DNA from: Clostridia bacterium
Lineage (GTDB): Bacteria; Bacillota; Clostridia; JAAYHZ01
Length of the DNA: 64,000 bases
Direction of reading: 5' to 3'
Assembly (NCBI GenBank): GCA_050950825.1
Contig: JBMNIH010000008.1
Span: 64,001 to 128,000 of the forward strand
A program made the position numbers and the translations under genes. Shown here one piece after another: positions 54,573 through 60,570 of the stretch (its first letter is position 1; each line of letters opens with the position of its first letter). The notes below the pieces were generated by a model that did no database searches, had not been told where the DNA came from, and saw only the letters and a list, made by a program, of their open reading frames with translations.

Positions 54573-54601
54573 ATTATAACACACATATTGACCGGGTTCA
54601 A
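54573..54601 (-). promoter_or_regulatory. Probable sigma-A promoter of the EET operon
   Basis: TTGAAC-17 nt-TATAAT with extended TG. Confidence 0.6.
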
Positions 54602-54666
54602 TAAATTGAAAAAAGCCGCTATTTACCGAATTACATGCCTTGATTGAAAAAGTAAAGTCCACTTTG

Positions 54667-56058
54667 GTTATAGTCTTAAGTAGTGGTGTAAATTTCGTGG
54701 AGTATGCTTGACAAGAGTAACCACCATATGATTTTTACTTTATTAGATTCAAACAAAAAAGATAAAGTAAAGGAGGTCATACCGTGGCTACTAAAAATAG
54801 AATGTCACTTTTAGAGCAACTTAGCAAGTATGTTGTTGAAAAAGATAAGGATTTTTTAAAGGAAGCGCTTACGCTGTTAATCAATGCTCTGATGGATGCG
54901 GAAGTTACGTCGATGATCGGTGCGGAAAAGTATGAACGAAGTGAGAATCGGAACAATCATCGTAATGGATACCGACAAAGAGAATGGGATACTCGCCTTG
55001 GTACGTTACAGTTAAGCATACCCAAATTGAGGCATGGAAGCTATTTCCCAAGTTTATTAGAGCCTCGGAAGATGTCAGAAAAAGCTTTATTAAATGTGGT
55101 GCAGGAAGCTTATGTGCACGGTGTCAGCACTAGAAAAGTAGATGAGTTGGTAGAATCTCTCGGAATTAAAGGGATGGATAAAAGCGAAGTTTCCGGGATC
55201 AGCAAGCAATTGGATGGCTTTGTCACCGAGTTCAAGAACCGCATACTCGAAGGAGAATACCCTTATCTTTGGCTTGATGCTACTTTTCCTAAGGTTCGTG
55301 AAGGTGGAAGAGTATGCAGTATGGCACTTGTAATAGCCGTAGGTGTAAATCAGTCCGGTGAACGAGAGATACTAGGTTTTGATGTCGGCATGAGTGAAGA
55401 CGGAGCTTTTTGGGAAGAGTTTCTGAGAAAGCTTGTAGCAAGGGGACTTAAAGGGGTGAAGTTAGTTGTAAGTGATGCCCATGAGGGGTTAAAATCCGCC
55501 ATAAAGAAGGTTTTAACCGGGAGCACATGGCAAAGATGCCGAGTACATTTTATGCGGAACGTATTAAGCCAAGTGCCGAAGAAGTGCCAAGGAATGGTCT
55601 CCTCAATCATACGCACCATTTTTGCACAAAATGATCAGGAATCCGCAAGGGAACAGCTAAGACATGTGGTAGATGAACTGAGGGGGCGTTTTCCGAAAGC
55701 AATGGAAATCCTTGAAGCAGCCGAAGAGGATATATTGGCGTATATGGCCTTTCCCCGTGAGCATTGGATACAGATTCATTCTACGAATCCATTGGAACGG
55801 CTTAATCGTGAGATACGCCGTCGGACTGATGTTGTATGCATATTTCCTAATCGTGATGCCGTTATTCGCCTTGTAGGTACTATGCTTATGGAGCAGAACG
55901 ATGAATGGCAGGTAGGGCGGCGATACTTCAGTTTAGAATCTATGGAAAAGCTTACACAGGCTAATGGGTTTTCATTAGCTCCGATTGCTATCTTACATAA
56001 ATGAAACGAAGGGAAGATAAAGTAGAAATCATTTTACACCACTTGACAAGACACTATC
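54667..56058 (+). mobile_element. IS256-family insertion sequence
   Basis: Imperfect IRs sharing GTCTT-N4-AGTGGTGTAAA; 8-bp TSD CCACTTTG at 54659-54666 and 56059-56066. Confidence 0.92.
54784..56004 (+). CDS. IS256-family (Mutator) transposase
   Basis: RNGYR.R, GVSTRKV, WLDA, SDAH.GL, QRCRVHF.RN, STN.LERLN.EI.RR. Confidence 0.95.
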   Translation: MATKNRMSLLEQLSKYVVEKDKDFLKEALTLLINALMDAEVTSMIGAEKYERSENRNNHRNGYRQREWDTRLGTLQLSIPKLRHGSYFPSLLEPRKMSEKALLNVVQEAYVHGVSTRKVDELVESLGIKGMDKSEVSGISKQLDGFVTEFKNRILEGEYPYLWLDATFPKVREGGRVCSMALVIAVGVNQSGEREILGFDVGMSEDGAFWEEFLRKLVARGLKGVKLVVSDAHEGLKSAIKKVLTGSTWQRCRVHFMRNVLSQVPKKCQGMVSSIIRTIFAQNDQESAREQLRHVVDELRGRFPKAMEILEAAEEDILAYMAFPREHWIQIHSTNPLERLNREIRRRTDVVCIFPNRDAVIRLVGTMLMEQNDEWQVGRRYFSLESMEKLTQANGFSLAPIAILHK

Positions 56059-56317
56059 CCACTTTGCAAGGTTAAATTCCATCCATCCTAAAAAATTATT
56101 GCATAAGGTGGGATAAAATTATTCTAACAAGGAAGAATTGTTACTATGGAAGGATTTTTTCTGCAAAAAGCAAGTGAATGCTTCATTTATTACCTGTTTT
56201 TTTGCATAGCAAACAAACCGTGTTGATTTCTTCACTTTTTTGCAAAGGTAAAATCCACTACGGTTAAAAGGTAATAATTGGCAGAACGATGCCTTTCGGA
56301 TAATTATTAATACTTTA

Positions 56318-57936
56318 CTCAAACTTCGCAGTAAATTAATATAATAAATTCCTAGATAATTTAATATAAGCTTTTTAAGTAATATATGTAACTAAGCGAC
56401 TTTTGACTTGGGTAATCTTAGTTTTAAATATTCAGGAAGTCTAGAAATGAAAATTCTAAGAAACCCATTTACTCGCTTATCATCAATCATGAAATACTCC
56501 ATTAAGCATTCTGACAGTATTTCGAGAATCAGTTGTATTACTTCATCGAACTTTATGTCTTGCAATTCATCGTAGCATAAATAAAACAACTCACCTATAG
56601 TTCGATTATCCATATTGTTCCGATTTTCTATTGCCAGCATGATATACCTACTGAGGACTACTGCGGTATGAGCCGTCATCATATCATATGACAAGCCTTG
56701 AAACTCTCTACCTAAATTGAGATATGTCTTGCACATTTTATAGAAAACTTCTATATCCCAACGTTTGCCATACGTTTGAATTATTTGCTCTTCCGAAAGC
56801 GCCAAATCGGTTGAAATGATGGCTATCCATTTCTTCCTGTTATTCCGATCCCGTACGAATACAATGCGAGCATCCATAGTCTCTTCTTCTTTGTTGTGAA
56901 TGGATACGACAACCGACAAAAGGTATTTGGAACGACCACGTCTCTTTTTTTGAGAATTATAGATTTCCTTAAGGGTCATTTTCTTTCCGTTAAAGGAATA
57001 CTTGATATTAGGAGTATCTTTAAGCCGCCCGATGCTGTGAAGCTTCAACTTCGCAATGTCCATGAGTATTGCAGGATAGGAAAACCAACTGTCGAACAGC
57101 ACGTGCTTTGCAGGTATGTGTTGCTCGACTGCTTGCCGAAGCATCGCTATCATTAAATCAGGGGCTTTCTGCATGGCTTGCATTCTTCGTTTGTATCCAT
57201 TGGTGTTTTTATGGATATCATCTCTCATTTTACACAAATGTTTTTCAACTTTGCCGGATGTGAGCAAACAAAAATTAAACGGAATAAGTGTGTTGCCATC
57301 TGACCATGCAAGAGTAAGCAACCTGAATCCTTTTTTACACTTGTTGTCGGTATGATCTCTGACAAACGAAAGCATCTCTACACATTTGCTTCGTAAACGG
57401 CCGTAGAAGGTATCATCTACAACAATGACATTAATACGGTCATCCGATGTCAAATCCTTTATATGGCTGTTTATAACCGTGGATGCCAATGTCATAACAA
57501 ATGTCTGCCAGTTAATATATATAGAGTTTAGGAAACGATATACAGTATCTTTTTTAAAATCGACATTTTTGTCTCTGTTGCTGTCTTTATTTTTTATCAG
57601 GTTCATATACATACTTCTGTTTGTGAAAACCAATTGAAACAAATAGAGAAAAATTTGAATTACCGGTACACCTCTTTTTTTATAAGCATTGGCATGTTGC
57701 AGAGCTTGATAAATTTTAAACTTTCTAAAAAAAAGATTGATTCTATCGTTAAACTGCTTTTCTTCGATATAATTTTCCGGTATACTATTCATGGCAAGGA
57801 GCTCCTTCGTTGTGATATTTTGTTTGTTATGTTAATTAATATTATACCACAACCCAGGTCTCCTTGCTATACTTTTTTGCACTAAACTATTGAATTATCT
57901 AGGTTCGAACTCACTTTTTCAAGTGCGAAGTTTGAG
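56318..57936 (-). mobile_element. IS4/IS701-like DDE insertion sequence
   Basis: 13-bp perfect IRs CTCAAACTTCGCA / TGCGAAGTTTGAG; 7-bp TSD TACTTTA at 56311-56317 and 57937-57943; exact family uncertain. Confidence 0.85.
56392..57792 (-). CDS. DDE transposase (IS4 superfamily)
   Basis: VDDT, LFDSWF, Y..RW.IE.F.K (YREK-like). Confidence 0.9.
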   Translation of the reverse strand: MNSIPENYIEEKQFNDRINLFFRKFKIYQALQHANAYKKRGVPVIQIFLYLFQLVFTNRSMYMNLIKNKDSNRDKNVDFKKDTVYRFLNSIYINWQTFVMTLASTVINSHIKDLTSDDRINVIVVDDTFYGRLRSKCVEMLSFVRDHTDNKCKKGFRLLTLAWSDGNTLIPFNFCLLTSGKVEKHLCKMRDDIHKNTNGYKRRMQAMQKAPDLMIAMLRQAVEQHIPAKHVLFDSWFSYPAILMDIAKLKLHSIGRLKDTPNIKYSFNGKKMTLKEIYNSQKKRRGRSKYLLSVVVSIHNKEEETMDARIVFVRDRNNRKKWIAIISTDLALSEEQIIQTYGKRWDIEVFYKMCKTYLNLGREFQGLSYDMMTAHTAVVLSRYIMLAIENRNNMDNRTIGELFYLCYDELQDIKFDEVIQLILEILSECLMEYFMIDDKRVNGFLRIFISRLPEYLKLRLPKSKVA

Positions 57937-59233
57937 TACTTTAATAAATCGGGATTCAAACAAATATTATTCGGTTCAATGAGTTTGGATCCCAATTTTT
58001 TTATTACTTCTTCACCAAACATAAATTTAAACACTTCATGAGGAGTTCTATCATTTAAAGATAATCCGGAGTAAGAATTTATGTGGTTCATTACAAGATT
58101 AATATCTTCCTGCACGAGATTATCGAAGCTTGTTCCTTTCGGTAAGATCTTCCTCAGTTCCCCGTGATTTTTTTCTTGTGATGCCCTTTGATAAGCTGAA
58201 TACGAATCGCAATAAAAGACCTTAGTTCTAACTTCTCCGGTTACTCGGTAGTATTCAATCGCTTTCGGGTTCGTAAATTCACTGCCCTTGTCAGCCAAAA
58301 GTATGGGAAACAGTTTTCGAAACGTGTCAAGACCCAAAAGCTCTGTCAGTTTGTCGAAAACATCGATTACCGATTGCGAATCGTTCGAGTCTCGTAAAAA
58401 TGCAAGCATAAATTCGGTTTTAACAAAATGCAACGTCATCAGCACTTTACCGCCTTTTGTACCAAGCACCGAATCCATTTCCACGACGAAAGGAGCATTA
58501 ACATCTGCCATCACTTTTTTGTAATCATCATACGTGCGTCCCTATTCGGCATTCGCGATCCACTTTATGAGTTACGCCCGGTTTTTTGCGAGATCGATAT
58601 CTTACTTTTCTGGGCATATCAATATTACGAGCCGTGAAGAGGCCGTAGTCAACGTAATTGTATAACGTCCTTTCGCTGTACATAATTTTATCGGCATTGT
58701 TTACGCAAATATGATGAATGGACTGGCCTTTTTTCAGAAGAGGTGATATCACGGTATCCAATTGTTGCAACGATTTTTCATCGATTGCCACACCGGAACG
58801 TGATTCCGAACGTGTATATTCATATTCTTTGTCTGCAACTTTAGCGTCGTATATCATTTTTTGCAATGAGCACTTGCGTTTTGTCGAGCATCCGTTACAT
58901 ACGTAAGGCGGTTTTTCGAGAGCATCACACTTCTGTTCTACGAAAGCATCACAGAAGTCATTGCACAGTCTGCATATGCTACAGATCCCTTTTTCGCAAA
59001 CTCCGCTTTTTTTACATAGCGAACGTTTATGACAACCGATCCTGTACTTACATGCATTGTACGATTGGCCCGAAAGCACCTGTCTTTCGTTCTACCCGAT
59101 GTCGACGAACTTCTTTGGATATTGTCGTGCAATCTTTACCGAGTATTTTACCGATTTCCTTAAAAGATTTTCCCTCCTTCAATAAGTTTTCGATATCTTT
59201 CCTGTCTGATAACGTCAAATGAGTTGACATCAT
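57882..59233 (-). pseudogene. IS30-family transposase with a Cys-rich insert, split by two +1 frameshifts
   Basis: HLTLSDR..IE HTH, PPYVCNGC, EMDSV, DKGSEF, EKNH..LR.ILPKG.SF; extra G near 59069 and near 58540; could be sequencing errors. Confidence 0.85.
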
Positions 59234-59780
59234 TATGGTTCTCCTTTCAAAATCATTTTGAAAGACATCGTTCTTTTTTAATGATTGCACTGATATCGGT
59301 AAGTAATACATGTTTTGTTAGTTTTTAGTTTTAGATCATGACAAAAGTCCATCCGGTTAAAAAGACAAGCAATGGCCTTTTGCGGCATAAACGGCCTACT
59401 TCCCGGCAAAGCCGGGTCCCTTCCATTTATTCCACAGTGCCATGCTTTTCTTTTTTCGCCATGCTTTTGAACATATACCGAGGGATGAAGAGGAGATGCA
59501 AGCGACCAATTTCTCAACGTCCCCCTCGTCTTTTATATCGTAGCATGGCGAACACCGTATTACTTTTATATTTGTTTAGGTAATGATAGTCTCAGGAATC
59601 AGCTAAAAATGCATGCTTTCTTTACTAGTAATTTTTTGTATTTGCGTTTGCATTAGTAAAGTCCACAATATTTTTATTAATATTTTTGCAAAAGTAAAAT
59701 CAACTGCAGCTTTCGAAGGGTGGACTTTACTTTTTCGATTAAAGACCGAATTACATGCCTTGAATTTTGAAAAAAGGGTG

Positions 59781-59810
59781 TTGACAAAAAGGATAGCCTG
59801 CTTGTATAAT
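59781..59810 (+). promoter_or_regulatory. Sigma-A promoter of tRNA-Gly/tRNA-Arg
   Basis: TTGACA...TATAAT consensus hexamers just upstream of tRNA-Gly. Confidence 0.8.
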
Positions 59811-59827
59811 GTAAAAGTCCGAAAAAC

Positions 59828-59901
59828 GCGGGTGTAGTTCAATGGTAGAACATCAGCCTTCCAAGCTGATTGCGAGGGTTCGATTCCCTTCACCCGCTCC
59901 A
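59828..59901 (+). tRNA. tRNA-Gly (TCC)
   Basis: GCGGGTGTAGTTCAATGGTAGAAC..TCAGC CTTCCAA GCTGA..GTTCGA..CCA. Confidence 0.97.
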
Positions 59902-59914
59902 TAATCAACCACAT

Positions 59915-59991
<77 letters not shown>

Positions 59992-60166: not shown

Positions 60167-60570
60167 TTACATAGCTGCTATTAATCTTTGAACTCCCACC
60201 ATATTAATCGCTCTACGCATGTTATAGGCAAGAAAACACAACCCAAGTTCTGCCGTGATTTTTTCTTTTCCATGACATAAGACATAGTGGCTTAAATTAT
60301 GCCATTTTATTGTACCAAATTGATGCTCCGAATGGCACATTCGCTTTTTTCTCATTTCATCCGTATACTTCATTCAGATAAGGACTTTTTTGTGACTTGT
60401 CTTCTTAAAGTTGTTCGGGAGCTTTTCGCCTTCCGGCATGAGTTGCAATGGACGCTCCTTGCATGAATTCATTCTTATGGGAGCATACTTTGCTTTTGGT
60501 CCAAACGCGGCAACCATGAACCCGGATTACGTACACTTGTTGGTACAAAATCGACAAGCCGCCTTACTCG
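60167..60570 (-). pseudogene. IS1182-like transposase C-terminal remnant
   Basis: EH.FGTIKW...GKEK..AELGL.FLAYN.RRAIN, with an upstream ACRFCTNKCT fragment; broken frames. Confidence 0.7.

Follow-up and report, generated by a model that had tools for sequence, protein, structure and literature searches.

A decayed IS30-family element in a Clostridia genome and the 13-bp target duplications of its relatives

What leads an insertion sequence with an IS30-like transposase to stand between direct repeats far longer than the 2-3 bp usual for that family? The question is raised by an element in a 64,000-nt stretch of DNA from a Clostridia bacterium (the window; contig JBMNIH010000008.1, positions 64,001 to 128,000), which is interrupted by two other insertion sequences and bordered by an exact 19-nt direct repeat (54625-54643 = 59745-59763). 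A sequence-only reading of the locus had proposed a distinct IS30 subgroup with a different targeting mechanism. We think it likely that the locus holds a decayed 2081-bp copy from a deep, populous branch of the IS30 family, marked by 13-bp target duplications, a cysteine-rich module in the transposase, and subterminal repeats of the core of the terminal inverted repeats (IRs).

The element and its target duplication

The two nested insertion sequences are an IS256-family element (Pfam Transposase_mut, 3.5e-137) and an IS4-like element (Pfam DDE_5 and DDE_Tnp_1). Excising both in script, each with its own duplication (1392+8 bp and 1619+7 bp), leaves exactly 2081 bp, reproducing the unit that the sequence-only reading had reconstructed. 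Uninterrupted forms of both nested sites are present in contigs of four metagenome runs from four studies (4/4), where the joints skip 1400 bases with 8 shared letters and 1626 bases with 7. The 25-bp IRs reported for this unit are confirmed, matching at 22/25 positions, with 23 nt paired at 91%.

The start of the element is fixed by its other copies. A whole-genome BLAST search with pieces of the element, which we call type A, located two further full copies, both on contig 2, and one fragment of 263 bp, on contig 11; all three start CCTTGATTGAAAAAG, each preceded by unrelated DNA. Because these copies begin at CCTTGA after unrelated flanks, the window copy starts at 54638 and its duplication is 13 bp long; the remaining 6 bp of the 19-bp repeat are an identity of the target with the element tip, as had been suggested. 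The repeat around the second full copy is a perfect 13-mer, TTTTTAAAAGACG, that extends no further, and the third copy has a 12/13 match, giving perfect 13-bp duplications in 2/3 full type-A copies. The comparison with other copies that the sequence-only reading had called for returns the same end register at CCTTGA, and neither of the other full copies has a 2-3 bp duplication.

The 14 matches of this genome to the IS30 model fall into five element types, A to E, and only this clade is present. Type C (2049 bp) has perfect 13-mers at 3/3 copies, and type D (1606 bp, one copy, 30-bp IRs) has a 13-bp duplication. The duplication of type B (1709 bp, two identical copies) is 11 bp as aligned, but 12 or 13 bp is an equally good reading, since the bases at its border are the same in both copies.

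Relatives in other genomes carry the same length. A scan of one genome per species gave at least 587 loci, the best 80 of which entered an automatic duplication scan; 7 were dropped for short flanks and 14 for want of an IR candidate, leaving 59. In 13/59 a repeat directly adjoined family-consensus IRs, being 13 bp long at 9 loci and 14 bp at 4; none had a repeat of 9-12 bp, and the remainder had 8 bp or less, or nothing; the 14-bp repeats may reflect one extra base matching by chance. When the right flank was shifted by 40 nt as a control, 0/59 loci had a repeat of at least 9 bp; with a shift of 25 nt, six repeats came up again because the subterminal repeats give a second anchor. Two within-genome copy pairs (L024/L025 and L074/L075) have 13 bp each and add four more 13-mers, and two further loci (L015 and L017) retain a decayed repeat only. 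The duplication of the clade length was found in 17 elements from 15 other genomes. Judged from these sequences, the duplication length of the clade is fixed at 13 bp.

A repeat that was there beforehand, or that arose by recombination between two copies, would make the flanking 13-mer something other than a product of insertion. We consider this very improbable: although an empty allele of the window site was not recovered from a sister species or the metagenomes, a repeat of the same length lies at the same IR register in more than 20 insertions, in unrelated sequences of 16 genomes, and the two genes on either side of another type-A copy are direct neighbours in the sister species, where the spacer lacks the element but is too diverged for the 13-mer to be read. 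At the window site itself, the sister-species contig stops 45 nt past the conserved flank, and the tRNA-Gly of that species sits in another context; in the four metagenome runs the left junction is present in its filled form, and no joint spans the element. The sister-species contig ends a few bases beyond the conserved TTACCGAA in a string resembling the IR of this clade, and a related element may lie there within a few base pairs of the same site.

Family placement and the cysteine-rich module

The order of parts in the transposase is HTH_38, a 12-Cys module, a second helix-turn-helix (HTH) region, and a DDE core. HTH_38 (PF13936; E 1.3e-16, window 59048-59311) is the sole Pfam domain found in it. 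Against NCBIfam NF033563, the curated IS30 model with a cut-off of 80 bits, the full-length relative P0002 scored 96.2 and the in-genome paralogues 114.5, 85.1 and 81.2; the two larger pieces of the window gene, scored separately, reached 25.5 and 75.2 bits. The DDE triad, which we assigned by pattern, consists of D247, invariant among 140 sequences, and of D308 and E347, each conserved in at least 90% of them. An AlphaFold2 model of the whole transposase (pLDDT, the predicted local distance difference test score, 95) has a core resembling retroviral integrases and IstA.

The element shares with IS30 a score above the model cut-off (reached by full-length relatives and paralogues), HTH_38, a DDE core of RNase H-like type, and IRs of about 20-30 bp (here 25). 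It departs from the family in its duplication, 13 bp here and in more than 20 related insertions where 2-3 bp is usual, and in a length beyond the usual 1.0-1.25 kb or so: type A is 2081 bp long, the other types in the genome are 1606-2049 bp, and relatives elsewhere are 1683-1957 bp. On its sequence, domain order and IRs, we place the element as a member of the IS30 family that lacks the usual duplication length and size.

The clade is large. A word-indexed search returned 998 proteins, typically of 426 aa and named IS30 family transposase wherever their sources name them, and an exhaustive search of 1.84 billion cluster representatives returned 6395 at E<=1e-3 and 886 at E<=1e-30, clusters being counted at 50% identity. 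The best 80 loci are mostly from Lachnospiraceae, Clostridiaceae, Oscillospiraceae and other Bacillota, with a few from Bacteroidales, one from Coriobacteriales and one from Verrucomicrobia; we take all of these taxa, by their names, to be anaerobic. Identity to classical plasmid IS30 transposases is 22-26%. A quick maximum-likelihood tree of 26 sequences sets five classical IS30 transposases apart by a branch with a support (SH-aLRT, an approximate likelihood ratio test) of 99; its careful search was unfinished, and several long branches leave the details unsure. The proposal of a distinct IS30 subgroup is borne out by the 886 clusters, the low identity, the separating branch, and the common possession of the module, long arms and the 13-bp duplication.

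Whether this is a subgroup or a separate family that merely shares its HTH and DDE core with IS30 turns on the same figures. Scores that lie just 1-35 bits above the cut-off, the 22-26% identity, a Pfam rve threshold that is unreached, a duplication and length that misfit IS30 as usually described, the absence of the module from five classical members, and the long separating branch could all be cited for a separate family. IS30 is nevertheless the sole transposase model above its cut-off, with IS481 and IS21 far lower, the order of HTH_38 and DDE is as in IS30, source databases label these proteins IS30 family, and the boundary between family and subgroup is a convention. We regard a separate family as improbable and retain the clade within IS30.

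The cysteine-rich insert between HTH and DDE domains was likewise correctly read: 12 cysteines are counted in the window copy, and the insert is a trait of the clade. It comprises 65-75 aa, typically with 12 Cys, between HTH_38 and the region covered by the IS30 model in a transposase of about 430 aa, and contains a universal C-x9-C-x2-C-x5-C core. Among 66 relatives, close or middling, 11 Cys never vary; among 140 diverse relatives C56, C96, C106 and C109 are invariant and six more Cys are present in at least 90%. A VCNGC-type motif occurs in 103/130 representatives of 400-480 aa, and within the 60 residues upstream of it these 103 have 12 Cys in 61 cases, 13 in 25, 8 in 8 and 5 in 2. In an alignment with five classical IS30 transposases the module stands as a clean insert between HTH_38 and a conserved Y-x-A stretch, and 5/5 of the classical proteins lack it. 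Only the last four Cys remain in type D and in a Collinsella relative, which are the first to branch off within the clade in the quick tree.

Modelled alone with AlphaFold2 (pLDDT 84), the module had no match by Foldseek against the Protein Data Bank (PDB) and none at Z>=2 by VIA-align against 48,161 chains. Sequence searches with it stayed at noise level, giving only NADH-G_4Fe-4S_3 in Pfam (E 0.069) and only C2H2 zinc fingers (E at least 0.036) and ferredoxin-like subunits (E at least 0.64) among PDB sequences; a search of the Atlas yielded nothing but fragments of the same family, scoring below 0.85.

Arms, target choice and the state of the locus

The non-coding arms amount to about 780 bp beside a transposase of about 1.3 kb, as first described. 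In typical members of the clade the upstream arm measures 147-206 bp, with 404 bp in a single case, and the downstream arm 248-344 bp. The corresponding arms of type A are about 510 bp and about 270 bp long, so that its excess length is upstream. Scanning with a 19-nt consensus of the IR core, allowing up to 5 mismatches, we found six sites in type A and six in type B, where block shuffles average 0.23 and 0.08. The two types have a common layout: at the upstream end a terminal site and two sites of opposite orientation within 100 bp, and at the downstream end a terminal site with another right beside it and one more about 200 bp inward. Type C has three sites at the same threshold. The suggestion that the arms take part in targeting finds indirect support in this pattern, in that the arms carry the IR core four more times, in places that A and B have in common.

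The rest of the upstream arm is predicted to fold as RNA at -110.8 kcal/mol (z -4.09, 0/100 shuffles as good). Rfam gave no match in the arms, Pfam gave none for three open reading frames (ORFs) in the upstream arm or for a 67-aa ORF in the downstream arm, and a simple scan for sigma-70-like promoters gave none on the transposase strand. Metagenome relatives that lack about 149 bp of the upstream arm (59442-59590) are far commoner in three of the four metagenomes; this stretch is bounded by a 9-nt inverted repeat, CGCCATGCT / AGCATGGCG.

The identity of the target with the element tip had also been taken to suggest that similarity between target and end guides insertion. We aligned the DNA beyond the duplication, anchored at its first base and with gaps allowed, to the opposite end of the element, and compared the scores with a background of GC-matched genome windows. 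The window copy stands out (p=0.0017), with the tip matched 6/6 beyond the duplication and then TTGAAAAA, and so does an independent insertion, the second type-B copy, in the same head-to-tail arrangement (p=0.0007). The other 14 end tests in this genome gave p values of 0.08 or more. Twelve insertions in other genomes (24 end tests) gave a best p of 0.043, with the weakness that the background was windows of this genome. End-like sequence placed head to tail, one duplication-length away, thus occurs at 2/20 insertions (40 end tests), and nothing of the kind at 18/20. An ungapped test with the IR core on the flanks of eight insertions was significant in none of 16 tests (best p=0.048), and no consistent palindrome was noticed in the 20 listed targets.

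The window site has further features. Direct copies of TTGAAAAAAG at 54596-54605 and 59767-59776 bracket the insertion point and were 41 bp apart before insertion; the 3.55-Mb genome has 133 copies on both strands. On the right, a perfect sigma-70-type promoter (59781-59810; TTGACA, 18 nt, TATAAT) serves tRNA-Gly(UCC) and tRNA-Arg(UCU), the promoter and genes together spanning 59781-59991. The end-like target overlaps the -35 region of this promoter, and the element ends 36 bp upstream of the -35 hexamer, leaving the tRNA promoter intact.

Two other copies bear on the same matter. One type-C copy (C7:154428-159696) has the first 13 bp of its tip twice in tandem at the upstream end, and this tandem, equal in length to the duplication of the clade, may be the footprint of an insertion into its own end. 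The third type-A copy (C2:461206-466700) has a transposase-proximal tip identical over 16 nt to that of type B. Both point the same way as the end-like targets.

These cases, the two significant alignments and the paired TTGAAAAAAG motifs could mean that similarity between target and end is the normal target choice of the clade, and that the 19-bp repeat reflects this mechanism; classical IS30 itself targets its own IRs in a strict orientation, according to an excerpt of PMC9333248. We doubt it. Eighteen of the 20 insertions are negative, the best of the other 38 end tests reaches 0.043 with the foreign loci scored against the composition of this genome, the ungapped core test is negative throughout, and the p-value of the window site is inflated because the site was selected for its coincidence. 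We read end-like targeting as an occasional second mode and not the rule; the earlier proposal does not hold as a general rule, and of the different targeting mechanism what stands is the stagger, 13 bp as against 2-3 bp.

The window transposase is split over three frames by single extra C's at 58540 and 59069 (two +1 frameshifts), and the IS4-like element separates its last sense codon from its stop. Because of these lesions the window copy is dead and cannot make transposase as read in this assembly. The IS256-family element interrupts its end, inserted between the downstream terminal IR core and the adjacent subterminal repeat. The three type-A copies differ mostly by single-base length changes in homopolymer runs. 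Both extra C's are missing from contigs of 4/4 metagenome runs, and in contigs of two runs the transposase continues through the element end at 59744 into other flanks, without IS3 insertions; from the metagenome difference tables we infer an intact version in natural populations. Beside the second catalytic Asp, type A reads DKGSEF (window 58288-58305, minus strand; the same in the contig-2 copies), where at least 90% of 20 aligned relatives have DNGSEF and one Butyrivibrio relative has DRGTEF.

Both contig-2 copies (C2:461206-466700 and C2:528991-534432) are broken by IS3-family elements (1359 and 1361 bp) that differ in site and in orientation, and no full type-A copy in the genome is free of nested insertion sequences. 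As far as this genome is concerned, the locus is a dead element turned landing pad for other insertion sequences. The features of the window copy are collected in Table 1.

Table 1. Coordinates of the window copy, its nested insertion sequences and its target DNA
Feature	Position in window	Strand	Remarks
13-bp target-site duplication, left copy, ACCGAATTACATG	54625..54637	.	exact match to 59745-59757; boundary from three other copies starting CCTTGA
Terminal IR, transposase-distal (downstream) end	54638..54662	-	19-bp core 54644-54662
IS256-family element, 1392 bp	54667..56058	+	8-bp duplication CCACTTTG at 54659-54666 and 56059-56066
Subterminal IR-core repeat adjoining downstream IR	56064..56082	-	5 mismatches to core consensus; site 2037 in transposase-sense coordinates
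Subterminal IR-core repeat, downstream arm, about 200 bp from end	56240..56258	-	
Transposase pseudogene	56307..59234	-	about 432 codons when read through
IS4-like element, 1619 bp	56318..57936	-	7-bp duplication TACTTTA at 56311-56317 and 57937-57943
Region coding for Cys-rich module	58870..59100	-	approximate bounds
Upstream non-coding arm	59235..59719	-	IR-core repeats 59648-59666 and 59686-59704, opposite in orientation to terminal IR
Terminal IR, transposase-proximal (upstream) end	59720..59744	-	
13-bp target-site duplication, right copy	59745..59757	.	exact repeat of left copy
End-like target DNA	59758..59785	.	CCTTGA = tip, 3-nt gap, then TTGAAAAA; anchored alignment score 8, p=0.0017

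The odd end of the third type-A copy, where the single duplication mismatch adjoins the type-B-like 16 nt, looks hybrid. Past the tRNA genes of the window, a 68-aa ORF (60167-60373, minus strand) may be what is left of another transposase at its C-terminal end. Another high-copy mobile element is a repeat of roughly 2.0 kb beside a frameshifted type-E copy (C11:83079-88349, positions 31-2026); the genome carries it at 12 or more additional sites with 99.6-99.9% identity.

Proposed mechanism and comparison with known systems

We suggest that the element would move by the copy-out-paste-in route of its family. The six core repeats would serve as transposase binding sites on which a larger synaptic complex is built, and the two active sites of this complex would attack the target 13 bp apart. 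The Cys-rich module may be a metal-binding domain, for zinc or an iron-sulfur (Fe-S) cluster, that helps to hold DNA or subunits in the complex. Sometimes the complex would land by a sequence like the opposite end of the element, one duplication-length off, as a counterpart of the IR-targeting of IS30.

Several points weigh against our interpretation of the locus. Of the scanned loci, 46/59 lack a clean duplication, many of them on short contigs that end at the element, and the scan found no clear combination of IR and duplication in three plasmid relatives (from Clostridium beijerinckii, Butyrivibrio and Collinsella). The duplication of one type-A copy is imperfect, and the tip of that copy is foreign. 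No empty allele of the exact site was found, and the duplication is deduced from consistency and not from a before-and-after pair. The IS30-model scores of full-length relatives barely exceed the cut-off. The frameshifts at 58540 and 59069 lie in C runs and could be assembly errors. The full 12-Cys module is not what sets the stagger: type D has four Cys and still duplicates 13 bp, and therefore the outer eight Cys cannot set it. Transposition, circle formation, repeat binding and metal content are all inferred; we found no end-to-end IR joint among the metagenome contigs, which cannot reveal rare circles.

A more specific version of the mechanism strikes us as a long shot. It would have the module, through C-x2-C-x2-C-x3-C, bind an Fe-S cluster and, together with the six sites, build a synaptic complex unlike that of IS30, which makes the 13-bp cut. 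If so, transposase activity would depend on an oxygen- or redox-sensitive cofactor, and these would be, to our knowledge, the first DDE transposases with such a dependence; the anaerobic taxa of all 80 best loci could be explained in the same way.

Few copy-out-paste-in elements have been studied as well as IS30, whose relatives mobilize genes of clinical importance. The clade described here is a large sister branch of 886 clusters in hundreds of species, and suggests that the synaptic complex of the family can be rebuilt in a different geometry, because it combines a fixed 13-bp stagger, several end motifs per arm and a conserved Cys module. As a natural comparison, it could serve to ask what determines how far apart the two strand transfers fall. 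For annotation, 13-bp and not 2-3-bp duplications should be sought around elements of 1.6-2.1 kb in Clostridia and their neighbours. A literature search found no paper on a Cys-rich IS30 transposase or on a 13-bp IS30 duplication, and by that search the clade is unstudied; such elements may already stand in ISfinder.

Classical IS30 of E. coli and its kin (for example ISLga1-type elements) are like the clade in having IRs of about 25 bp and a single transposase, with HTH_38 at its N-terminus and the DDE core at its C-terminus. Classical elements are about 1.0-1.25 kb long with short non-coding ends, whereas those of the clade reach 1.6-2.1 kb; five classical transposases lack the 65-75-aa Cys module, and the clade elements of types A and B have four subterminal core repeats. 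By layout only, the clade recalls phage Mu and Tn7, in which several copies of an end motif stand in each arm in mixed orientation, six in all in the clade element. Their transposases are of a lineage unrelated beyond the DDE fold, and Mu and Tn7 duplicate 5 bp of target.

IS1630 of Mycoplasma fermentans is an IS30-type element with duplications far above 2-3 bp, and is said, going by the title of a 1999 paper by Calcutt and colleagues, to target inverted repeats. The sequence-only reading had drawn on its long variable duplications as a parallel. The parallel fails on closer comparison: IS1630, at 1.2-1.4 kb, has duplications that vary (16, 23, 25 and 26 bp in an excerpt of PMC3317919), unlike the fixed 13 bp of the clade. 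The nearest likeness in behaviour is to IS30 itself, since the occasional head-to-tail insertion by an end-like sequence recalls its IR-targeting; there, as an excerpt of PMC9333248 has it, the same arrangement comes with a 2-bp duplication, in contrast to the 13 bp of the clade.

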